Shown in pieces: positions 14,385 to 24,087 of a stretch of DNA of 64,000 bases. Both the position numbers and the translations under genes were made by a program. Positions within the stretch are counted from its first letter, which is position 1. Each line of letters begins with the position of its first letter. The notes under the pieces are model-generated. The model saw only the letters and a program-made list of their open reading frames with translations, had not been told where the DNA came from and made no database searches. The stretch lies in IMG/VR virus record IMGVR_UViG_3300008116_000002, one strand, 5' to 3'. Source of the stretch: a virus. Taxonomy: Duplodnaviria > Caudoviricetes.

Positions 14385-14461
14385 GCCCACTTAGCTCAGT
14401 CGGTTAGAGCACAATCTTGATAAGGTTGGGGTCCCTGGTTCGATTCCAGGAGTGGGTACCA
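14385..14461 (+). tRNA. tRNA-Ile(GAU)
   Basis: Cloverleaf, anticodon loop TTGATAA, encoded CCA. Confidence 0.95.
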
Positions 14462-14462
14462 A

Positions 14463-14538
14463 GTCCCATTCGTCTAGTGGCCTAGGACATCGCCCTTTCA
14501 CGGCGGTAACAGGAGTTCGAGTCTCCTATGGGACGCCA
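14463..14538 (+). tRNA. tRNA-Glu(UUC)
   Basis: Cloverleaf, loop CTTTCAC, CCA. Confidence 0.95.
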
Positions 14539-14581
14539 TTTGATATGCCGATTGAGAAATAGTACAGTCAACATATCAAAT

Positions 14582-14659
14582 GGTAAGGTGGCTGAGTGGT
14601 CCAAAGCAGCAGTCTGCAAAACTGTAAAGCCGCCGGTTCAAATCCGGCCCTTACCTCCA
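14582..14659 (+). tRNA. tRNA-Cys(GCA)
   Basis: Cloverleaf, loop CTGCAAA, U73 discriminator, CCA. Confidence 0.93.
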
Positions 14660-14664
14660 GATAA

Positions 14665-14739
14665 GGTCTCAAAGTGTTCATGGACGCACATATGCCTGTC
14701 ACGCATAAAGAAGGGGATCGTTACCCCTTGAGACCGCCA
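14665..14739 (+). tRNA. tRNA-Asp(GUC), atypical D and T loops
   Basis: Acceptor GGTCTCA/TGAGACC, loop CTGTCAC, G73, CCA; T loop reads GATCGTTA instead of GTTCGA. Confidence 0.85.
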
Positions 14740-14780
14740 GAACCCCCGGGATCCCTTACCCGGTAATATTACTAGGGGGT

Positions 14781-14946
14781 ATTGACAGCCACAATGTCAG
14801 GGTGTCGAGATCGGAGCTACCTCAAAACTCCTGGGAAGGAGTGACGAAAAGTCTCGAAGGACAGCGCTGCAACTGACCTTAATAAAAGCGGACGGACAGT
14901 GAAACAACTCAGGAAAGGGCGAGTGCTGGGTGCTCGTAGCTTTCCA
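14781..14946 (+). ncRNA. Putative structured ncRNA A ending in CCA
   Basis: GC-richer intergenic stretch with several stems; GAGCTAC/GTAGCTT helix followed by T-CCA; shares a GGACAG..AACAACTC.AG motif with ncRNA B. Confidence 0.5.
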
Positions 14947-14948
14947 TT

Positions 14949-15030
14949 GCCCATGTGGTGAAATGGTAGACACGCTTGCCTTAGGAGCAAGTACGAGAGT
15001 GTGGCGGTTCGAGTCCGTCCATGGGCACCA
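14949..15030 (+). tRNA. tRNA-Leu(UAG)
   Basis: Cloverleaf with variable arm, loop CTTAGGA, CCA. Confidence 0.93.
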
Positions 15031-15122
15031 TATTGAAGTGTTGTTTAGGGTGGCAGGTAAAAGTTTAACAAGACTTTGAGGGCTGGAATTCCCGATCTGT
15101 GAACAGCAGAACACTTCAATAT

Positions 15123-15197
15123 GGGGAATTGGCGTAATTGGGAACGCAGTAGCTTTGCAAGCTTCAGTCAGGAGTTCGAATCTCCTATTCTCCACCA
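15123..15197 (+). tRNA. tRNA-Ala(UGC)
   Basis: G3:U70 pair, loop TTTGCAA, CCA. Confidence 0.94.
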
Positions 15198-15204
15198 AAT
15201 ATTT

Positions 15205-15282
15205 CGGGGAGTAGCTTAGTCCGGTTAAAGCGCCTGCTTTGGGAGCAGGAGATCGAGAGTTCGAATCCCTCTTCCCCGACCA
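15205..15282 (+). tRNA. tRNA-Pro(UGG)
   Basis: Cloverleaf, loop TTTGGGA, CCA. Confidence 0.95.
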
Positions 15283-15289
15283 GTTTTAT

Positions 15290-15364
15290 TCCAGAGTAGC
15301 TCAGCGGCAGAGCCGCGGACTGTTAATCCGTTGGTCGTTGGTTCGATCCCAACCTCTGGAGCCA
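15290..15364 (+). tRNA. tRNA-Asn(GUU)
   Basis: Cloverleaf, loop CTGTTAA, CCA. Confidence 0.95.
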
Positions 15365-15370
15365 GTTTTA

Positions 15371-15455
15371 GGATGACGAGCAGCATTGGTGACTGCAGCA
15401 GACTGTAAATCTGTCGCCTCAGGCATACGGGGTTCGATTCCCTGGTCATCCACCA
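15371..15455 (+). tRNA. tRNA-Tyr(GUA)
   Basis: Cloverleaf with variable arm, loop CTGTAAA, CCA. Confidence 0.93.
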
Positions 15456-15458
15456 TAC

Positions 15459-15533
15459 GGGAGATTAGCTCAGTGGTAGAGCAGCGCCCTTACAAGGCGA
15501 AGGTCAATGGTTCGACCCCGTTATCTCCTACCA
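15459..15533 (+). tRNA. tRNA-Val(UAC)
   Basis: Cloverleaf, loop CTTACAA, CCA. Confidence 0.95.
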
Positions 15534-15541
15534 GATTTTAT

Positions 15542-15618
15542 CTGGCGTTAGCTCAGTTGGATAGAGCAACAGCCTTCTAAGCTGTGGGTCGGGGGTTCGA
15601 ATCCCTCACGCCAGGCCA
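15542..15618 (+). tRNA. tRNA-Arg(UCU)
   Basis: Cloverleaf, loop CTTCTAA, CCA. Confidence 0.96.
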
Positions 15619-15624
15619 TACAAT

Positions 15625-15698
15625 TGGGGATTAGTGAAATGGTATCACACCGGATTTTGATTCCGAGGTCGTAAGTTCGATTCTTACATCCCCTGCCA
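15625..15698 (+). tRNA. tRNA-Gln(UUG)
   Basis: Cloverleaf, loop TTTTGAT, CCA. Confidence 0.93.
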
Positions 15699-15730
15699 AA
15701 TCGTTATTAAAGTGTTAATAAAACAAATGC

Positions 15731-15759
15731 TTGACAAGAAATTGATTCGGTGTTATAAT
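15731..15759 (+). promoter_or_regulatory. Strong sigma70-type early promoter
   Basis: TTGACA-17 bp-TATAAT with extended TG. Confidence 0.88.
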
Positions 15760-15788
15760 TATGATATAATGTAAATAAGGAGATACAA

Positions 15789-15929
15789 ATGCAACGAAAA
15801 CGTATCGCCAAGCCCCGTAACCCGCTGGTGGCTTTGGCATTGTTTAAGAAAGCGGGTAAGCATCAAAAAACAAACAAAGCATTACGTAGGGAATATAGAG
15901 CGGGCATAGCTCAGTTGGTAGAGCAGTAG
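15789..15929 (+). CDS. Small Lys/Arg-rich protein whose stop lies inside tRNA-Lys (46 aa; missed by the ORF track)
   Basis: SD TAAGGAG; MQRKRIAKPRNPLVALALFKKAGKHQKTNKALRREYRAGIAQLVEQ*. Confidence 0.75.
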   Translation: MQRKRIAKPRNPLVALALFKKAGKHQKTNKALRREYRAGIAQLVEQ

Positions 15930-15975
15930 ACTTTTAATCTATGTGTCGTGGGTTCGAATCCCTCTGCCCGTACCA
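15900..15975 (+). tRNA. tRNA-Lys(UUU)
   Basis: Cloverleaf, loop CTTTTAA, CCA. Confidence 0.95.
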
Positions 15976-16056
15976 TATTAAAACACATTTCGAGCGGTGT
16001 TCCGATATCGGCCAGCCCGCCCCAAAGTAGATGTCTAGGGTAGTGTGTTTTAATAT

Positions 16057-16405
16057 GGTGAAGAAGCAAGGTTGGGATTTCGTCAGATAATGACGGTGCG
16101 CTGAAAAAACCCAGTAATGCGAAGCCGAAAGGCATCCTTGCGGTAAGCAGAAAGTTGGCGTGGCGACCAATCATCATAAAGTTCCGGTTACTACTTTCCT
16201 GAAAGTAGCGTATGGTAAACGAGAAAGTCCCGGTGGCTATGGCACCGTTAGCGAGACATAGACTCTGTATTTCGATGCGGTGTCTCCGGTGTCTCAGACA
16301 ACATAGCAACGTGGACACTACGCAGCAAACCGCTATTAGTGTTTGGACAGGGCAACAACTCCAGCATAGGGGCGATCTGTGGAAAGACGTGGCCTAAGCA
16401 AGAAT
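16057..16405 (+). ncRNA. Putative large structured ncRNA B (about 350 nt)
   Basis: Many stems in an AT-rich genome: GCAAGG/CCTTGC, CGTCA/TGACG, GCC-GAAA-GGC, CTACTTT/AAAGTAG, CGGTG/CACCG, GAGACA/TGTCTC with an inner UUCG hairpin; no credible ORF; flanked by tRNAs. Confidence 0.6.
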
Positions 16406-16410
16406 ACGAT

Positions 16411-16486
16411 GGTGTCTATAGTGTAGTGGTCTGCACGCCAGATTGTGGGCCTGGCAGTATGAGTTCAATCCTCATTAGACACCCCA
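16411..16486 (+). tRNA. tRNA-His(GUG)
   Basis: G-1 and C73, loop TTGTGGG, CCA. Confidence 0.9.
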
Positions 16487-16540
16487 AAGTTAATCGCGTG
16501 TGAGGCGTGGGGCTTCGGCCCCTAACCTATTTGTACTTGT

Positions 16541-16630
16541 GGAAGTGTGGCAGAGTCCGGTTTATTGCAACAGTCTTGAAAACTGTCGAACAGAAATGTT
16601 CCGTGAGTTCGAATCTCACCGCTTCCGCCA
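16541..16630 (+). tRNA. tRNA-Ser(UGA)
   Basis: Long variable arm, loop CTTGAAA, G73, CCA. Confidence 0.95.
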
Positions 16631-16643
16631 CTAAGGAGTAATT

Positions 16644-16793
16644 ATGCCAATGTATGAAACAACAGTAAGAACGCCACAGGGTGAAGTAAAAGATAGAGTG
16701 TTTGCAAAAGATTTACAAGAAGCAAGAATGCTTTTTGAACAAAGACACGGACCTAGAAACGTACCATATATACCTAAAGTAATTCCAAGTTAG
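16644..16793 (+). CDS. Small hypothetical protein (49 aa; missed by the ORF track)
   Basis: SD TAAGGAG; MPMYETTVRTPQGEVKDRVFAKDLQEARMLFEQRHGPRNVPYIPKVIPS*. Confidence 0.7.
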   Translation: MPMYETTVRTPQGEVKDRVFAKDLQEARMLFEQRHGPRNVPYIPKVIPS

Positions 16794-16805
16794 AAGGAGA
16801 AACAA

Positions 16806-17369
16806 ATGCCTGCAATTTTTTTAGTTAGTGATACTCATTTCGGCCATGCAGGCGTTTGTAAATTTCTACGTGACGATGGCACTAAATTACGTCCATGGGA
16901 TAACCCCGAGGACATGGATGAAGAAATGGTCAAGCGGTGGAATGAAACTGTTAGACCAAAAGATAAAGTTTATCATTTAGGAGATGTAGTTATTAATCGA
17001 AAGGCTTTAAAAACGCTTAGTAGATTAAACGGTGAAAAGGTCTTAATCAAAGGTAATCACGACATCTTTAAACTTGAAGAATACACTGAGTATTTTAAAG
17101 ATGTTCGAGGTTATCATGTACTGAATGGAATGATTCTAAGCCACATTCCTATTCATGAAGAAAGCCTTGCGAGGTTCGGGACTAATATTCATGGACATCT
17201 ACATTACAATCGTGTAAAGAAAAATGAAGTCATTGATCCTCGTTATCACTGCGTATGTGTAGAGCATACCGACTACCGCCCAATTCTTTTTGAGGATGTC
17301 ATTAAAAAGATTCAAGAAGAGGGTGGGCATATTGGATTTAAAAATGGCAATGGACCTATTATAGATTGA
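16806..17369 (+). CDS. Calcineurin-like metallophosphoesterase
   Basis: SDTHFGH, HLGDV, KGNHD, SHIP, IHGHLH motifs. Confidence 0.93.
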   Translation: MPAIFLVSDTHFGHAGVCKFLRDDGTKLRPWDNPEDMDEEMVKRWNETVRPKDKVYHLGDVVINRKALKTLSRLNGEKVLIKGNHDIFKLEEYTEYFKDVRGYHVLNGMILSHIPIHEESLARFGTNIHGHLHYNRVKKNEVIDPRYHCVCVEHTDYRPILFEDVIKKIQEEGGHIGFKNGNGPIID

Positions 17370-17379
17370 GGAGTTTGAA

Positions 17380-17586
17380 TTGAATACTAAGTTGAAAGCA
17401 ATTAAACAGACAGCTATGATGGTAGTTATCATATGTCTTATTCCTATGATTCTAACGTTTTTGTTTACTTCCGAGATAGCATCTTATATTTTTATCATAG
17501 GTATGGTAGCATTTTTTATATACATTATGTATTCTGTAAATCTAGCATTTATAGAATTTGAGGAAAAGTTTAAAAATAAGGAGTAA
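17380..17586 (+). CDS. Small two-TM membrane protein
   Basis: TTG start after GAGGAG; two hydrophobic helices. Confidence 0.55.
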   Translation: MNTKLKAIKQTAMMVVIICLIPMILTFLFTSEIASYIFIIGMVAFFIYIMYSVNLAFIEFEEKFKNKE

Positions 17587-17592
17587 GTATTT

Positions 17593-17687
17593 GGAGCGTT
17601 GGCCGAGTTGGTCGAAGGCACTTTCCTGCTAAGAAAGCATCTGGGCAAAAACCTGGATCATTGGTTCGAATCCAATACGCTCCGCCA
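17593..17687 (+). tRNA. tRNA-Ser(GCU)
   Basis: Long variable arm, loop CTGCTAA, CCA. Confidence 0.94.
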
Positions 17688-17692
17688 GCAAT

Positions 17693-17724
17693 GCCCCCGT
17701 AGTTTAATGGTAAAACAGCGGATT
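17693..17724 (+). pseudogene. Orphan 5' half of a tRNA, broken in the anticodon loop
   Basis: GCCCCCG-TA-GTTTAATGGTAAAAC-A-GCGGA-TT gives the 5' acceptor strand, D arm and 5' anticodon strand; no matching 3' half found; a late promoter follows directly. Confidence 0.75.
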
Positions 17725-17725
17725 G

Positions 17726-17733
17726 TATAAATA
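17726..17733 (+). promoter_or_regulatory. T4-type late promoter of the endonuclease gene
   Basis: Exact TATAAATA, then SD AAAGGAG. Confidence 0.8.
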
Positions 17734-17752
17734 ATAGTAAAGGAGAAATCTT

Positions 17753-18403
17753 ATGCTATTATGCAAATTTTGCCAAAAAGAATGTAAGAATGAAAACTCA
17801 TTGAGGAATCACAAGAGACTTTGTAAAGAAAATCCAAATAAACAACCACACCCTAAAGGTAATAGCGGAAAAGTTGGTTGGAATAAAGGGCTAACTGCAG
17901 AAACTGATGATAGAGTTTTTGCTAATAGAGAAGCTTTACGAAAACAAAGAAAAGAAAATGGTTCTAATTGGATAGGAAGAAAGCATTCAGATGAAACTAA
18001 AGAATTATTATCAATAAGAGCGTCTGAACGTTTATGTAAAAATTCAAAATACTCTATAAATTTTGAATATAAACCTGGAATCATATTAGAATCTTCATAT
18101 GAAGTTGAAACTGCTAAAATTTTAGATGAATTGAATATAGAATGGATTAAAGTTAGGACTGGTTATAAATGGGATGACAATGGAAAGATAAGAAGATATG
18201 TCCCTGATTTTTTCCTTCCGAAATATAACATATTTCTAGATCCAAAAAATGATTATTTGATTAAAAAAGACAAAATAAAAATAGATTCTGCAATGAAACT
18301 TAATTCAATAACTATTATTGTGTTATCAAAAGATGATTTGAATGTAGAATCTATAAAAAGTAAATTGCCTACCGTAGCTCAAGGAGAGCAGGGTGCCTTA
18401 TAA
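17753..18403 (+). mobile_element. Free-standing homing-type endonuclease (Zn finger + NUMOD3-like + PD-(D/E)XK-like domain)
   Basis: CKFC...H...C, GWNKGLT, GRKHSDETKELLS, SSYE...YVPDFFLPKYNIFLDPK; very AT-rich. Confidence 0.75.
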
Positions 18404-18457
18404 GCACTTCGACCAGATAAGTCCCAGGTTGTGGTTCGATTCCGCACGGTAGGACCA
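18368..18457 (+). tRNA. tRNA-Ile(UAU) with long variable arm
   Basis: Acceptor CCTACCG/CGGTAGG, A73, loop CTTATAA, T arm GGTTCGATTCC, CCA. Confidence 0.8.
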
Positions 18458-18459
18458 GA

Positions 18460-18534
18460 GGTAATGTAGCATAACGGTAGTGCACCGCCTTCATACGGCG
18501 CAAGGTATAGGTTCAAATCCTATCATTACCACCA
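18460..18534 (+). tRNA. tRNA-Met(CAU), probably elongator
   Basis: Paired G1:C72, loop TTCATAC, CCA. Confidence 0.85.
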
Positions 18535-18544
18535 TAGTTTCAGA

Positions 18545-18620
18545 CGCGGATTAGGGAAGAGGTCATCCCGCTAGGCTCATAACCTGGAGATCGCTGGTTC
18601 GAATCCGGCATCCGCAACCA
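18545..18620 (+). tRNA. Initiator tRNA-fMet(CAU)
   Basis: C1:A72 mismatch, CGCGG start, loop CTCATAA, CCA. Confidence 0.9.
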
Positions 18621-18628
18621 GTTTATAA

Positions 18629-19216
18629 ATGAATATGAAAATTTATGATAATGTTTTACCGAATCAAACTTTTTCTAATTTAAAAAATAGAATTTTTGAT
18701 TCCAATTTCCCTTGGTTTTTTAGTAGAACTTCTGTAGAAAATCCTATAGAGGATAATATTTTAACCTATAGTTTTTCTCATGCGGTTATGAATCACGGTG
18801 TGCCAAATTCTATAATATTTGACACAATTAATAGTTGCATCTTAACCATGTTAGATAATTGTAATATAAAACTAAATATGTTATTAAGTATTAGACTTGG
18901 ATTACTACAACCAGTGTCTAGAGAAAATCATAGTAATGATCCGCACGTGGATAGTCAAGAAAAACACAAGGTGGGTTTATTCTATTTAAATACTACAGAT
19001 GGCGCAACAACAGTATATAATGAAAAGTACGATCCTTCTACAAAGATGGATCCAACAGAATATTATAGATCGGTTCTAAATAGAAATCTTTCTATTCAGT
19101 CCAAAGTAGAATGCACTGAAAATAGATTAGTTATTTTTGATGGTATGTATTATCATTCAAGTACTACTCCTACCGATGTACCTAGGAGAGTAGCATTAAA
19201 TTTTAATTTTGTATGA
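18629..19216 (+). CDS. 2OG-Fe(II) oxygenase-like protein
   Basis: PHVD (HxD), LFYLNTTDGAT, ENRLVIFDG, HSS...RVALNFN double-stranded beta-helix pattern. Confidence 0.75.
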   Translation: MNMKIYDNVLPNQTFSNLKNRIFDSNFPWFFSRTSVENPIEDNILTYSFSHAVMNHGVPNSIIFDTINSCILTMLDNCNIKLNMLLSIRLGLLQPVSRENHSNDPHVDSQEKHKVGLFYLNTTDGATTVYNEKYDPSTKMDPTEYYRSVLNRNLSIQSKVECTENRLVIFDGMYYHSSTTPTDVPRRVALNFNFV

Positions 19217-19218
19217 TA

Positions 19219-19296
19219 CCGCCATTAGCTCAATTGGAATAGAGCGCAACGCTACGGACGTTGAGGTTAGGGGTTCGAGTCCTTTATGGCGGGCCA
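19219..19296 (+). tRNA. tRNA-Arg(ACG)
   Basis: Cloverleaf, loop CTACGGA, CCA. Confidence 0.94.
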
Positions 19297-19874
19297 GTTT
19301 CTGAAGGTGGAATTGCTATTAATTCTTCAATACCAAAGTAATAGTCTTTAAGAATTTCTGACATTAGATCGCATATTTTTATATTTTTTTCAAAACCAGC
19401 AAGATCATTTTTTCTACCTTCTATTTGCTTTTCAACAAGTTCAAGTATTAAATTTTTTCTTTTGGTTTTAGAATTTACTCGACGTAGTACTTGTTTTAAA
19501 TGTTCGAGATGAACATTACATACATTAATATTGTGGTGCATATCTGTTCGTATTTTTATAACCTCATCCTGCATTAGGACAATTAGATCATCTGTTTCTG
19601 GGTTTAAGTTAGGAACAAGTCTTGACACCATCTGAGAAATATGTTCTAATGCAGCATTGCGAAGAGTTAGATCTTCTGAGGACTCACCTAACAGATCAAA
19701 TTCTTTTCTTCGAATAGGATCGATTAGAATTTCATATGCAAGTTTAATACGAACGAATATTTGTTCATCCCCACCCTTGTCGGGATGATGCACTTGAGCC
19801 AATGAACGAAATTTTATTTTAATTTCTTCATCTGTTGCATCAATCGGAATATCTAATTCGATGTAAGGATTCAT
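19284..19874 (-). CDS. J-domain (DnaJ-like) protein
   Basis: NPYIELDI...FRSLAQVHHPDKGGD...AYEILIDPIRRKEFD. Confidence 0.9.
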   Translation of the reverse strand: MNPYIELDIPIDATDEEIKIKFRSLAQVHHPDKGGDEQIFVRIKLAYEILIDPIRRKEFDLLGESSEDLTLRNAALEHISQMVSRLVPNLNPETDDLIVLMQDEVIKIRTDMHHNINVCNVHLEHLKQVLRRVNSKTKRKNLILELVEKQIEGRKNDLAGFEKNIKICDLMSEILKDYYFGIEELIAIPPSETGPP

Positions 19875-19912
19875 GGCTATAAATTATTTTATAGTATTTA
19901 TTAGGAGATAGT

Positions 19913-20095
19913 ATGTCAGGAAAAGGATCTAAACCAAGACCATTTGCAATAACCAGGGAACACTTTGTAGAAAACTGGGATATGATTTTTAACAAAGAAA
20001 ACAATACTGGTACAGATAAAAATGAGTATCAAGACATTCTTTCAACCGAGGAAGCAGTATTATCAGCTTTCGAAAACTTAAAGGAAGTAAAATGA
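19913..20095 (+). CDS. Small hypothetical protein
   Basis: SD TAGGAG; MSGKGSKPRP...; ATGA-coupled to the next gene. Confidence 0.75.
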   Translation: MSGKGSKPRPFAITREHFVENWDMIFNKENNTGTDKNEYQDILSTEEAVLSAFENLKEVK

Positions 20096-20991
20096 ATCTC
20101 GCTGGTGTTAACGGCAGCATAGCGGTCTCCAAAACCGAAGGACGGGGTTCGAATCCCTGGCGGGGTGCCAAATATATTGCTCTACTACTTGCATTCGTAA
20201 CTTGCTTTGCGTCTGCGCATGAGCCTAAAAAGAAAAAGAAAAAGAAAGTAGTTACTGCGGAAACTGCAAGCTATGTGGTGTACAACAATACAAAAGATGC
20301 TTACGAGTATATTAGAGAAAAAGAAAAGGTTCGCCCAATAGCAAGTGTCACTAAGCTAATGACGGCAATGGTTGCTCTAAATTATGATTTGAATTTAAAT
20401 CGAGAACTTAAAATTCAATCTAAGGTAGGTGGGACTTTACCGAGAAACAAAAGTTATACTAGGCAAGAATTGTTTGGAGCAATGCTTGTTCGAAGTGATA
20501 ACTCCGCGGCAGAAACTTTGGCTAGTGATTTTCCTGGAGGTAGAGAAGCCTTTATTCGTGAGATGAATAAATTTGCAAACTATATCGGTATGCGAGATAC
20601 AAACTTCGATGATCCAACAGGACTGAGCGCTGCAAATACTTCGACAGCCACAGATGTTGCGGCGATGGTTGCACATGCAGCACAATATACTTTGATTCGA
20701 GAAACTAGTACAAAGAAGCAGGTTGAAATTGATACTCAATATAAGAGAAAAATTAGAAAACTTGTTTTAAACAATACAAACAAACCTGTTCTTTTTAACT
20801 TTGATGATATTGTCGTTAGTAAAACAGGCTTTACCTCCAGAGCAGGATATTGTTTGGCTTTGGCAGTTGAACGAAACAATCAAAGATATTCTGTAGTTAT
20901 TTTGGGTTCTAGAAATAAGCAAGCTAGAATTCATAAAGCCGAGGACATTTTGTATAATCATATTGCATACAAAGATATTGACACTAATTAA
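20092..20991 (+). CDS. D-Ala-D-Ala carboxy/endopeptidase (peptidase S11, PbpG/DacA-like), with tRNA-Trp nested in frame
   Basis: SxxK (SVTK), SxN (SDN), KTG motifs; signal peptide KYIALLLAFVTCFASA. Confidence 0.9.
   Translation: MNLAGVNGSIAVSKTEGRGSNPWRGAKYIALLLAFVTCFASAHEPKKKKKKKVVTAETASYVVYNNTKDAYEYIREKEKVRPIASVTKLMTAMVALNYDLNLNRELKIQSKVGGTLPRNKSYTRQELFGAMLVRSDNSAAETLASDFPGGREAFIREMNKFANYIGMRDTNFDDPTGLSAANTSTATDVAAMVAHAAQYTLIRETSTKKQVEIDTQYKRKIRKLVLNNTNKPVLFNFDDIVVSKTGFTSRAGYCLALAVERNNQRYSVVILGSRNKQARIHKAEDILYNHIAYKDIDTN
20096..20170 (+). tRNA. tRNA-Trp(CCA)
   Basis: Acceptor ATCTCGC/GCGGGGT, loop CTCCAAA, T arm GGTTCGAATCC, G73, CCA. Confidence 0.88.
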
Positions 20992-21006
20992 GAAAGAATA
21001 TATAAT
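20978..21006 (+). promoter_or_regulatory. Sigma70-type promoter
   Basis: TTGACA-17 bp-TATAAT. Confidence 0.8.
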
Positions 21007-21029
21007 TAGACTAGTTCAAAGGGGAAGTT

Positions 21030-21503
21030 ATGAGAAAAAAGTTGGACATTCAAGAAATCAAAAGTTTCATTGAATCGCAAAGCCCGGAAACTAAAATTTA
21101 TCTTGGAGCGGACTCTGAACGATATAAACATAATGGTAAATGGTATGCGGATTATACTATTGCAGTTGTAGTTCATATTGATGGTCGCCATGGGTGTAAA
21201 ATTTTTGGTGAGGTTCAAACTGAACTAGATTATGATGCAAAAAACAGCAAACCATCTATGCGTTTGATGAATGAGGTCTACAAGGTTGCAGAATTGTATC
21301 AAAAGATTGTGGATGTCGTCGAGGACAGACACGTAGAAATACATTTGGATATTAACCCAGATGAAAAACATAACAGTAGTATTGTGATTCAGCAAGCAGT
21401 TGGTTATATCAAAGGTATGTGTAATGTGGTACCTATGGTTAAACCAAAAGCATTTGCCGCAAGTTATGCAGCAGATAGACTTAAAGAATTGCTTGCAGCA
21501 TGA
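21030..21503 (+). CDS. RNase H-like YkuK-family protein
   Basis: IYLGADS, RLMNEV, EIHLDIN, VKPKAFAASYAADR. Confidence 0.8.
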   Translation: MRKKLDIQEIKSFIESQSPETKIYLGADSERYKHNGKWYADYTIAVVVHIDGRHGCKIFGEVQTELDYDAKNSKPSMRLMNEVYKVAELYQKIVDVVEDRHVEIHLDINPDEKHNSSIVIQQAVGYIKGMCNVVPMVKPKAFAASYAADRLKELLAA

Positions 21504-21508
21504 AATTC

Positions 21509-21582
21509 GCCCTCTTAGTTAAATGGTATAACAGTTGATTTGTAATCATCTATTGGCAGTTCGATTCTGTCAGAGGGCACCA
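21509..21582 (+). tRNA. tRNA-Thr(UGU)
   Basis: Cloverleaf, loop TTTGTAA, CCA. Confidence 0.94.
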
Positions 21583-21598
21583 TTTTAGAAAGGTCGGT

Positions 21599-21799
21599 AT
21601 GTTAGGATTGGAACAGGCAGGTGTATTTTTAGGAGCAACAATTCTTATTGGCTTTGGTATAGCATTTATTGGAATGGTTGTGATTTTTCTTAATAACATG
21701 ATTCATAGATTTTGGAAGCCGTTAAACTGGTTCGGAAAGTATTTTAACTTTAACGAGCCAACCAACCCTGAGCCTCCAAAAACTAAACCTTCATTATAA
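21599..21799 (+). CDS. Small membrane protein
   Basis: Single long hydrophobic helix; SD AAGG. Confidence 0.6.
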   Translation: MLGLEQAGVFLGATILIGFGIAFIGMVVIFLNNMIHRFWKPLNWFGKYFNFNEPTNPEPPKTKPSL

Positions 21800-21808
21800 G
21801 GAGTTTGT

Positions 21809-21961
21809 ATGCAAAAGGAATTACTAAAAGAAAATGGACCTAAGTGTGGTTGTGGTCGTAGCCCAAGTGGGTATTGCATTGGTTGGCATGGACTTTCTGA
21901 ATCGGAATATAAAGAGCGTTTGGAACAATACAAGCAAGATCTAGGCGAGAACGACAAATAA
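21809..21961 (+). CDS. Small Cys/His protein resembling a CDGSH iron-sulfur motif (50 aa; missed by the ORF track)
   Basis: SD TAAGGAG; KCGCGRSPSGYCIGWHG. Confidence 0.7.
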   Translation: MQKELLKENGPKCGCGRSPSGYCIGWHGLSESEYKERLEQYKQDLGENDK

Positions 21962-21971
21962 ATAGTTACAT

Positions 21972-22045
21972 GCGGGATTAGTTTAATGGTAAAACGAAAG
22001 CCTTCCAAGCTCTAATCATCGGTTCGATTCCGATATCCCGCTCCA
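21972..22045 (+). tRNA. tRNA-Gly(UCC)
   Basis: GCGGGAT acceptor, loop CTTCCAA, U73, CCA. Confidence 0.95.
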
Positions 22046-22049
22046 TAAT

Positions 22050-22337
22050 ATGCGTATTCAAAAAGATGAGACTTACGAGCAATGGTCAGAAAAGGTTCGT
22101 CTTTTTGAATATGGAGTTGCACTGCAAAGAATTGCTAAAGGCGACGATATAGATATTGTTTTGGAGTCTATGTCGAAAAAAATTAATCAAAAACTTTTGC
22201 ATCCTTTGATCGAAAGCATCAAACAATCATGTCAAATAGATTATGATCCTTTGATCGCAAGAAAAAATTACGAAGAAAATTACTTAGGAAAAGCAAATCC
22301 TGTAGCAGATCATATGAATGATGTAGACTTCTATTAA
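22050..22337 (+). CDS. Protein resembling the isolated dimerisation domain of glutamyl-tRNA reductase
   Basis: ALQRIAKGDDIDIVLESMSKKINQKLLHP resembles the HemA C-terminal A-L...G-E-D...L...NK-L-H-P pattern. Confidence 0.6.
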   Translation: MRIQKDETYEQWSEKVRLFEYGVALQRIAKGDDIDIVLESMSKKINQKLLHPLIESIKQSCQIDYDPLIARKNYEENYLGKANPVADHMNDVDFY

Positions 22338-22367
22338 TCACAAAGACCCCCTTAAACTTTGTGTCTA

Positions 22368-22375
22368 TATAAATA
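22368..22375 (+). promoter_or_regulatory. T4-type late promoter
   Basis: Exact TATAAATA, then SD AAAGGAGG. Confidence 0.8.
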
Positions 22376-22392
22376 GATATAAAGGAGGGTCT

Positions 22393-22821
22393 ATGATAGA
22401 TATTAATGAATTCATTAAAACTAGTAAACAAGAACGGCAATCTCATTTATTATTATCTGAAAAATGTATTGAACGTGGGGGAAATTCGACCAATCACAAG
22501 GGGGTATTAGCTCAGTATTTGAATACCTCTATCCCTTCGGGTAGAATACTTTTATGCCATGCGTGCAACAATGAAAAATGTAGTAATCCAAAACATTTAT
22601 ATTGGGGTACAGACAAAGAAAATATTACTGAAGATAATAAAAAATGGAAATCTGTTTGGGAAAGAACCATTGAAAAATATGGATATGAGGAAGCCTGCAG
22701 GATAAATTCTCGTAAGCAAATTGGAAACAAAAATGGTTCGGGCAATAAAGGTAAATCTAAAACTGAAGAACATAAAAAAAAGATAGCAAAGTCTATTAAA
22801 AGCAATTATAATAAGATGTGA
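22393..22821 (+). mobile_element. Homing-type HNH/His-Cys endonuclease with NUMOD3-like tail
   Basis: LCHACNNEKCSNPKHLYWGTDKEN; KGKSKTEEHKKKIAKS; own late promoter. Confidence 0.75.
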
Positions 22822-22831
22822 TGTATTTAAT

Positions 22832-22917
22832 GCGAGTGTGGTGGAACGGTATACACTTTGGACTTAAAATCCAACGCCCGTAAGGGATTGAGGGTTCAAA
22901 TCCCTCCACTCGTACCA
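22832..22917 (+). tRNA. tRNA-Leu(UAA)
   Basis: Variable arm, loop CTTAAAA, CCA. Confidence 0.95.
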
Positions 22918-22948
22918 GTGTTTTATATTTTTATTTTAAGGAGATTGA

Positions 22949-23485
22949 ATGAAAACAGTAGGTGATAAACTTGAATCATTTTCAGTTACCGGTGTTAATC
23001 CCGGTAAGGATGATTTCTTTACTATTACAGAAAAATCTTTTGAAGGTAAGTGGAAAGTAATTGTTTACTATCCAAAAGATTTTACATTCGTATGCCCAAC
23101 AGAAATCGTAGCATATGATAAATTGTTCCAAGACTTTGCAGATCGTGATGCAGTATTGTTGACAGGTTCAACAGATAATGAATTCTGCAAACTAGCATGG
23201 CAACGTAGTCATGAAGATCTTTCAAAGATCAAGCATATTCAATTTGCTGACACCGCACGTGAATGGGGCGTATCTTTGATCGAGCAATTGGGTGTGTTCT
23301 ACGCACCGGCAGGCGCAGCACTTCGTGCAACCTTTATCGTTGATCCAGAGAACACCATTCAGCACGTTACCGTAAACAACTTGAACGTTGGTCGTAGCCC
23401 AGAAGAAACACTTCGTATTCTTGATGCGCTACAAACTGGTGAACTATGTGCATGCAATCGCACAATCGGCGGAGAGACTCTATAA
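22949..23485 (+). CDS. ahpC: Peroxiredoxin AhpC
   Basis: YPKDFTFVCPTE peroxidatic Cys; ALRATFIVDP; GELCACN. Confidence 0.96.
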   Translation: MKTVGDKLESFSVTGVNPGKDDFFTITEKSFEGKWKVIVYYPKDFTFVCPTEIVAYDKLFQDFADRDAVLLTGSTDNEFCKLAWQRSHEDLSKIKHIQFADTAREWGVSLIEQLGVFYAPAGAALRATFIVDPENTIQHVTVNNLNVGRSPEETLRILDALQTGELCACNRTIGGETL

Positions 23486-24003
23486 TGACTGCTTGGGTAG
23501 ATACACTAAAAGAAGTAAGTATTCCTGAGTATGCCAAGGATACTAAACTTAATTTAGATGCGGTTATCAAACGTAGTTCACTACCCGCAGAAGAGGCGGA
23601 GGCAATTGCTCTTGCAGCTGCCTTTGCTACAGGTAATAGTAAACTATGGACATGGCTTCACGATCAACTTACAGATCGTAAAGAGGCAGATGCCGCTCTT
23701 ACCGCAGGCGCAATCATGGCACAAAATAATGTATGGTATCCATATGTTGAAATGGCAGATGATGCGAACCTAAAAGGTCTTCCTGCTCAACTTCGTATGA
23801 ATGCAATTGCAAGCCATGGTGGTACAACAAAGGCAAGGTTTGAAGCATATAGTCTTGCAGCAAGTATTGTGGGCAAGTGTCATTTTTGTGTAAAAGCGCA
23901 TTACGAAACTTTGAAGCAAGAAGGTTATACTGTAGAACAATTACGAGACATTGGTCGTATTGCTGCAGTAATGAAAAGTGTTGCAAGTGTTTTAGCTAAT
24001 TAA
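23485..24003 (+). CDS. ahpD: Alkylhydroperoxidase AhpD
   Basis: Start reassigned to the TAATG-coupled ATG; SIVGKCHFCVKAH; MAQNNVWYPY. Confidence 0.93.
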   Translation: MTAWVDTLKEVSIPEYAKDTKLNLDAVIKRSSLPAEEAEAIALAAAFATGNSKLWTWLHDQLTDRKEADAALTAGAIMAQNNVWYPYVEMADDANLKGLPAQLRMNAIASHGGTTKARFEAYSLAASIVGKCHFCVKAHYETLKQEGYTVEQLRDIGRIAAVMKSVASVLAN

Positions 24004-24010
24004 AGCACAA

Positions 24011-24087
24011 GGGCCGGAAGCTTAATTGGTATAAGCGTCCGACTCATAATCGGGGGACAGTGAGTTCGAGTCTCACCCGGCCCACCA
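24011..24087 (+). tRNA. tRNA(CAU), probably Ile2 (lysidine type)
   Basis: GACTCATAATC anticodon arm typical of Ile2, A73, CCA. Confidence 0.85.

Follow-up and report, generated by a model that had tools for sequence, protein, structure and literature searches.

In a freshwater phage, a complete tRNA-Trp gene is nested, in frame, behind the start codon of an S11 DD-peptidase gene and ahead of its signal peptide. Comparison with relatives shows that selection acts on one stretch of DNA in two roles, as a tRNA and as a segment of an ORF, and that this ORF has no other canonical start. On the comparative evidence, we consider it fairly probable that the locus gives rise to a dual-use precursor RNA, each transcript of which would yield either the tRNA or the enzyme. 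We infer that the ATG at 20092 is used in vivo, that maturation of the tRNA competes with translation, and that the phage makes use of this competition, with a low or timed output of peptidase. A first-pass annotation of this DNA had already proposed a single RNA whose start codon lies 5´ of the tRNA, so that processing would sever the ORF from its start, and the comparisons described below lend support to that proposal.

The window (the whole stretch of DNA that was analysed, 64,000 nucleotides) comes from a T4-like phage and encodes a family B DNA polymerase, a DnaB-type helicase and collagen-like fibres. Exact matches to its DNA are found in freshwater and lake metagenomes, and no close cultured relative was found among the INPHARED phage records in either DNA or protein comparison. 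ARAGORN identifies 25 tRNA genes within 14385-24087, one of which is tRNA-Trp. The features of the locus are collected in Table 1. The upstream ORF of 60 codons (ORF60) is syntenic among relatives. Ahead of it, the motif TATAAATT resembles the T4 late-promoter consensus, TATAAATA. This motif is 218 nt before tRNA-Trp, a distance that is the same in the five loci of the window's subclade, and no late-promoter motif of its type was seen in the other subclades of relatives; we treat it as a hint only of a promoter for a unit of ORF60, tRNA-Trp and peptidase.

Table 1. Features of the nested tRNA-Trp/peptidase locus, in window coordinates.
Feature	Position	Strand	Remarks
TATAAATT, possible promoter of the ORF60/tRNA-Trp/peptidase unit	19878..19885	+	near T4 late-promoter consensus
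Upstream 60-aa ORF (ORF60)	19913..20095	+	no family match; TGA stop overlaps the peptidase ATG (ATGA)
Shine-Dalgarno-like AAGGAAG	20081..20087	+	4 nt before ATG 20092; AGGA core at 20082-20085, 6 nt before
ATG start codon	20092..20094	+	sole canonical in-frame start 5´ of the signal peptide
tRNA-Trp, anticodon CCA, 75 nt, CCA encoded	20096..20170	+	ARAGORN, Rfam; codons 2-27 of the ORF
Codons R-G-A-K	20161..20172	+	positive n-region; three codons from the tRNA 3´ acceptor strand
Signal-peptide hydrophobic core and ASA cleavage motif	20173..20217	+	predicted cut before H43
In-frame ATT, rival non-canonical start	20176..20178	+	SD-like GGGGTG of the tRNA 3´ strand 8 nt upstream
Mature PBP7-like S11 DD-peptidase and stop codon	20218..20991	+	Pfam PF00768; SxxK, SxN, KTG motifs

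The peptidase ORF extends from 20092 to 20991 (299 aa), and the last two bases of its ATG together with the next A make up the TGA stop of ORF60. The AAGGAAG leader is predicted to pair with the anti-Shine-Dalgarno (anti-SD) sequence at -6.3 kcal/mol, a value that ~7% of random 20-mers from the window also reach. Read in frame, the tRNA-Trp stretch supplies 25 sense codons, which are followed by K-YIALLLAFVTCFASA and then by HE. Between 20092 and the GTG at 20275, which is the next canonical in-frame start and lies downstream of the signal peptide, there is no in-frame ATG, GTG or TTG. By eye, the ORF appears to have a Sec-type signal plan, consisting of R-G-A-K, a 12-residue hydrophobic core and A-S-A, behind a 26-residue extension, and homologues are built alike in this region. 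The K codon of R-G-A-K begins with the terminal A of the tRNA CCA, and cleavage before H43 is predicted from the -3/-1 rule. The first-pass annotation had described the same layout, and each of its elements was recovered here: an ORF starting at ATG 20092 with a Shine-Dalgarno (SD) sequence and ATGA coupling to the upstream gene, a canonical tRNA-Trp with CCA, a stop-free reading of that tRNA into the signal peptide of an S11 peptidase, and the lack of an in-frame ATG, GTG or TTG between the two. The single Trp codon of the 299-codon ORF (TGG, 20158..20160, + strand) is located within the tRNA-Trp gene.

Residues 55-274 of the encoded protein match Peptidase_S11 (PF00768) with E = 7.6e-39 and 134 bits, against a gathering threshold of 27.6. 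The best NCBIfam match, NF008668 (the PBP7/PbpG D-Ala-D-Ala endopeptidase), reaches 163 bits and so misses the equivalog cutoff of 294, and we therefore call the peptidase PBP7-like only. The SxxK, SxN and KTG catalytic motifs are invariant in our alignment (A1). Between lineages, dN/dS for the peptidase is 0.07-0.2, with dS of 1.3-3.7, such that synonymous sites are saturated. This pattern of substitution indicates that the peptidase is a functional gene under strong purifying selection. Given the low dN/dS and the saturation of synonymous sites, the invariant ATGA described below is not leftover similarity.

The nested tRNA-Trp also has the marks of a genuine tRNA. It scores 39.9 bits against Rfam RF00005, for which the gathering threshold is 29. 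Across 13 tRNA-Trp variants, 96.9% of the pair cells of the cloverleaf hold standard pairs, and compensatory changes on both sides are seen in 14 of its 20 pairs. This degree of pairing and covariation was reached by none of 500 shuffles, and registers slid along the sequence fell far below it. Covarying pairs are also present inside the fused clade, at 1-71 (A-U/G-C), 28-42 and 50-62. The covariation indicates that the nested tRNA-Trp is kept as a tRNA by selection. The cloverleaf did not emerge from thermodynamic folding of 20066-20215, which gave a structure no better than shuffles (z = 0.49) and is uninformative on access to the SD sequence. In the same fold, the leader is predicted to pair with 20194-20212.

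Among 5.8 billion proteins searched, there are 14 distinct relatives (59-92% identical) that had been called from the ATG before the tRNA and whose N-termini consist of translated tRNA. The DNA was read for 11 distinct loci of the window type. In all 11, ATGA adjoins nucleotide 1 of the tRNA, the tRNA is 75 nt long and the peptidase is in phase; the 20 nt preceding the ATG are freely variable among these loci. The frame in which ORF60 passes over the ATGA differs between subclades. In the window's own subclade it reads AAA-TGA and stops there, and in the L001 and L165 subclades the reading is AAT-GAA, with the stop at a TAG within the tRNA, so that the ATG is not kept for the sake of ORF60. 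A leader preference of RNase P was rejected as the reason for the ATGA, since the window's 24 remaining tRNAs have leaders that differ and contain no ATGA-type motif. Counting against a start at this ATG, L162, L166 and L165 have a weak SD sequence, at -2.8 to -4.9 kcal/mol.

The N-terminus of the protein also bears on where translation begins. All 104 homologues that have their own M start carry at least one K or R before the hydrophobic core. The family-typical N-terminus is M-x-R-x-L-I-L, and out-group homologues have an ordinary M-x-K/R signal peptide. In the fused clade, the Arg of the n-region is encoded by tRNA nucleotides 66-68, which argues for a translation start upstream of the tRNA 3´ end. 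Given that the enzyme needs to be exported, and that ATG 20092 is the only canonical start before the hydrophobic core, these considerations support read-through from this ATG.

An open frame through a tRNA is, on its own, unremarkable. Among 180 distinct tRNAs of related loci, ~28% of the tRNA/frame combinations, taken over all frames, are free of stops, and the frame used in the window's tRNA-Trp is open in 49% of the 180. Stop avoidance offers no independent test, because there are few tRNA variants in the fused clade. What does exceed chance is that a start codon, the correct phase and the lack of any other start are kept together among diverged relatives. Since open frames are common by chance, the case rests on conservation and necessity.

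The first-pass annotation had raised the question of whether homologues keep the nesting or have a tRNA-free N-terminus, and we found both. Nesting runs throughout the clade of tRNA-Trp fusions, which is monophyletic in the maximum-likelihood tree with support of 100/99. In a sister lineage, L004-L010 (59% identical), ORF60 has been lost and its ribosome-binding region retained. Here an AT-rich spacer contains AGGAG and, after 6 nt, an ATG placed 20 nt upstream of a 74-nt tRNA-Trp. With one base fewer in its D-loop, this tRNA is read over its 5´ part in another frame, which is open in just 10.6% of tRNAs; the ORF is still open and in phase with the peptidase, for which there is no other canonical start. 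L012 (57% identical) is unfused, with a tRNA-Trp whose corresponding frame has stops, an 11-nt spacer, and a peptidase that begins at its own ATG (M-K-K-L-L-L). In L163/L164 (62% identical) the tRNA is missing, and ORF60 is coupled via TAATG to a peptidase that starts M-R-G-L-I-L. As these two nest inside the fused clade in the tree, beside a fused member (95/92), parsimony favours secondary loss of the tRNA. Secondary loss is a tentative reading for L163/L164, in that the out-group L025 also starts M-I-R-G-L-I. We rejected the M-R-G-L-I-L start as proof of an in-frame deletion; it is only suggestive, given ~50% nucleotide identity at the junction and the similar N-terminus of that out-group.

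Other fusions have different geometries. In the out-group member L082, which is among the matches listed in a scan of metagenome contigs that gave mainly distant homologues, a 74-nt tRNA-Trp is fused in another frame, such that tRNA nucleotides 71-73 form an ATG and the CCA is read as Pro. In a distant clade, 37% identical, at least six loci have a tRNA-Arg(TCT) fused to an S11 peptidase. The CCA is a Pro codon in these loci, the hydrophobic core follows directly after it, and canonical starts are limited to either a TTG 8 nt upstream of the tRNA or an ATG or GTG within it. Judged from these arrangements, tRNA nesting at the 5´ end of S11 peptidase genes has evidently arisen several times.

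Contigs from three lake metatranscriptome runs, with ~93-95% identity to the window, extend over 20030-20216, 20056-20206 and 20069-20216, and all three run from the end of ORF60 through the ATG and the complete tRNA into the signal peptide; these contigs are of low depth, come from a relative and are free of strand and end information, and DNA carry-over is possible. Further contigs from RNA runs match the body of the peptidase exactly (20483-20645 and 20875-21039). The RNA contigs are consistent with an unprocessed precursor. Another RNA contig (X27) stops one base short of the tRNA 5´ end, and we do not count it as evidence of RNase P cleavage, since unitigs break at strain divergence.

In the model that we prefer, ORF60, tRNA-Trp and the peptidase would be carried on one RNA, transcribed within the phage tRNA array. 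A ribosome would start at ATG 20092, either through SD binding or by re-initiation after the overlapping TGA of ORF60, and ribosomes that are ending ORF60 would cover the first nucleotides of the tRNA and thereby delay its folding. The initiating ribosome would then unwind the 75-nt tRNA, read its 25 codons, and proceed into the signal-peptide core and the DD-peptidase. The 26 tRNA-encoded residues would make up a long N-terminal extension in which R-G-A-K serves as the positive n-region, and signal peptidase, cutting after ASA, would remove the entire tRNA-encoded extension. If the tRNA folds first, RNase P would cut one base past the ATG and 3´ processing would occur at the CCA. This would free tRNA-Trp and leave the peptidase coding RNA with neither a start codon nor an SD sequence. 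A tRNA folded directly behind the start codon would be expected to impede initiation, a consideration that counts against read-through.

We suggest, tentatively, that tRNA maturation could go further and act as a regulated switch, in which the share of precursors that escape RNase P would set the amount or the timing of the peptidase. That share would depend on the traffic of ribosomes on ORF60 and on the capacity of host RNase P while 25 tRNAs are being processed, and ribosome pausing at the single UGG codon inside tRNA-Trp may be a further input. On this reading, S11 peptidase genes would have acquired such wiring more than once, with tRNA-Trp in three geometries and also with tRNA-Arg.

The alternative that survives best is initiation at a non-canonical codon just 3´ of the tRNA, which would be ATT 20176 in the window and ATT, ATA, TTG or ATG in relatives, with GGGGTG as the SD sequence and ATG 20092 incidental. 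The 20 nt preceding this ATT could form a duplex of -6.8 kcal/mol, at 8-nt spacing, and in this respect ATT 20176 is as good as ATG 20092; most loci have an in-frame ATT, ATA, TTG or ATG 0-12 nt past the tRNA. However, chance alone would place such Ile and Leu codons in an AT-rich hydrophobic segment, and both the codon and the position of the candidate start change between loci. In L166 and L004, the sole candidate after the tRNA is an ATA that overlaps the CCA, 2 nt after the SD-like motif. Initiation at these positions would also produce signal peptides of 12-16 residues that lack K/R, against the 104 of 104 own-start homologues that have it, and would leave unexplained both the invariant ATGA and the in-phase AGGAG-ATG of L004. 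For these reasons, we regard such a start as unlikely. It would, moreover, need an uncut tRNA 3´ end, so that competition with tRNA maturation would persist. Whether translation begins here or at ATG 20092, the sequence needed for initiation is within the tRNA or 5´ of it, and consequently the processed RNA would not be translatable.

We give very little credence to the overlap being an accident of a compact tRNA array, with a silent or decaying peptidase or an apparent tRNA that is a coding relic. Gene callers do run ORFs through tRNAs by default, and one frame in three or four is stop-free in any tRNA. Nevertheless, a silent or decaying gene is at odds with the strong purifying selection on the peptidase and its invariant catalytic motifs, and a relic is at odds with the compensatory changes that preserve the cloverleaf. 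An accident would also fit poorly with tRNA-Trp being unique among the 25 tRNAs of the window, and with a layout that has lasted across lineages whose synonymous sites are saturated.

The least credible alternative, which we reject on the 74-nt variants, is that the tRNA is taken out of the message, being either excised with rejoining of the flanks or bypassed as in T4 gene 60, to give a protein that begins M-K-Y-I-A-L-L-L: T4-like phages encode RNA ligases and use bypassing in gene 60, and removal of the tRNA from the 75-nt type preserves the frame and yields an ideal M-K signal peptide, but removal of the 74-nt tRNA from L004-L010 puts the peptidase out of frame and into a stop, the CCA is a Pro codon in L082 and in the tRNA-Arg loci, a joined form without the tRNA was not seen in the RNA contigs, and we know of no bacterial pathway that rejoins the products of RNase P and 3´ processing. 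The bypass in T4 gene 60 involves matched take-off and landing codons and a frame-independent gap; matched codons are absent from the flanks of the phage tRNA, and skipping of the 74-nt variants would shift the peptidase out of frame.

Transcripts shared between tRNAs and mRNAs are known, as in the thrU-tyrU-glyT-thrT-tufB operon of E. coli and the T4 tRNA cluster with its ORFs, where RNase P and RNase E separate the products. In operons of the tufB type, the downstream gene has its own SD sequence and start codon after the tRNA, and its message survives processing, unlike that of the phage peptidase. Long N-terminal extensions are also known from autotransporters, in which ~25 residues precede a normal Sec signal peptide, and such precursors can be exported. 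The autotransporter extensions are conserved protein motifs, whereas the phage extension would be the by-product of an RNA gene, and no homology is implied. Overlaps between tRNA and protein genes are present in compact animal mitochondrial genomes, where processing of one product truncates the other and one transcript therefore cannot give both (Doublet et al., 2015, cited in PMC8124441). Overlaps of the mitochondrial kind are usually partial and occur in organelle genomes with tRNA punctuation, and they are not known to set an entire tRNA between start codon and signal peptide.

The sole published bacterial precedent that we found is the selB-selC pair of Alphaproteobacteria, in which the tRNA forms a dispensable C-terminal tail (PMC8124441). 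There selC, encoding tRNA-Sec, is nested in the selB ORF, and it was described as the first case of a tRNA gene nested within a bacterial ORF (Mukai, 2021; PMC8124441). Folding and processing of the tRNA was proposed to repress the full-length protein, in a study that was purely bioinformatic (Mukai, 2021, Int J Mol Sci 22:4605; PMC8124441). The phage locus resembles selB-selC in that a complete tRNA gene on the same strand is read as sense codons within an ORF, in that the arrangement is kept in many relatives and lost in some, and in that a tRNA length divisible by three helps to keep the frame. In selB, the functional domains are made before the C-terminal extension that the tRNA encodes, and there is coupling to the next ORF. 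In the phage, the tRNA occupies codons 2-27, ahead of the signal peptide, so that a processed RNA would give no enzyme. The phage locus also differs in that the tRNA and the peptidase are functionally unrelated, in its occurrence in a phage, in the several independent geometries of fusion and in the involvement of a second tRNA identity (Arg). Our literature search found no phage example of a translated tRNA.

If ATG 20092 is used, a whole functional tRNA gene would be read as codons before any of the enzyme is made, and tRNA processing would be an obligatory antagonist of peptidase synthesis. Annotation pipelines that bar overlaps between coding sequences and tRNAs would truncate peptidases of this kind, as has happened for P0002, P0009 and P0018. 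The locus would offer a natural test case for the competition between ribosomes and RNase P on nascent RNA, and for the joint action of tRNA and coding constraints on one sequence. It would likewise be a test case for how a phage doses a peptidoglycan hydrolase that is potentially dangerous.

A distant S11 peptidase (37% identical) is preceded at six loci by an in-frame nested tRNA-Arg(TCT), with Pro encoded by the CCA and the hydrophobic signal core directly after it. The candidate start in five of the six is a TTG 8 nt 5´ of the tRNA, and tRNA-internal ATG or GTG codons are alternative candidates. An out-group peptidase, at the related locus L082, is fused to a 74-nt tRNA-Trp (L082:1400-1473) in a third frame. 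Here, nt 71-73 of the tRNA form an ATG with CCA adjoining 3´ (M-P-I-L-A-L-L...), and the same frame has a second ATG 25 nt 5´ of the tRNA.

Within the window, the only TGG (Trp) among the 299 codons of the peptidase ORF, at 20158-20160, falls inside the tRNA-Trp gene. This placement may be due to chance; a protein of such a length would be expected to contain roughly three Trp codons. In the minimum-energy fold, the SD/ATG leader (20076-20097) pairs across the tRNA with the signal-peptide coding region (20194-20212), a fold not better than those of shuffled sequences.

The genes flanking the unit of upstream small ORF, tRNA-Trp and peptidase, encoding DnaJ-domain and RNaseH-like proteins, keep their synteny in most relatives. 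Elsewhere in the window, ARAGORN called a 90-nt tRNA-Ile(tat) at 18368-18457, unusually long for tRNA-Ile and also called in relatives L002, L004, L166 and L169; it overlaps by 36 nt an ORF (17753-18403, 216 aa) without a family match. The tRNA array of the phage also contains genes for an AhpC-like peroxiredoxin and an AhpD-like alkylhydroperoxidase (22949-24003), with tRNA-Leu on one side of them and tRNA-Met on the other.

Coordinates of unit-flanking genes, upstream small ORFs, mis-called peptidases and nested tRNA-Arg genes
Feature	Location	Strand
DnaJ-domain protein, flanks unit (opposite strand)	19284-19874	(-)
RNaseH-like (PF04308) protein, flanks unit	21030-21503	(+)
Upstream small ORF, stop inside tRNA	L001:2778-2936	
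Same	L165:670-855	
Same	L166:1829-2014	
Mis-called fused-clade peptidases	L170:851-1666 (P0018); P0002; P0009	
tRNA-Arg(TCT) in S11 peptidase ORF	L117:540-614	
Same	L118:1426-1500	
Same	L121:330-404	
Same	L171-L173:1129-1203	

Some peptidases of the clade carrying the tRNA-Trp fusion were cut short by gene callers, which placed starts at an ATG, TTG or Leu codon within the signal peptide. These truncated calls show a route by which the tRNA-in-ORF layout becomes mis-annotated.

In the L001, L165 and L166 subclades, a TAG at tRNA nt 8-10 is the stop codon of the upstream small ORF, and therefore RNase P cleavage would strip the stop codon from that ORF too.
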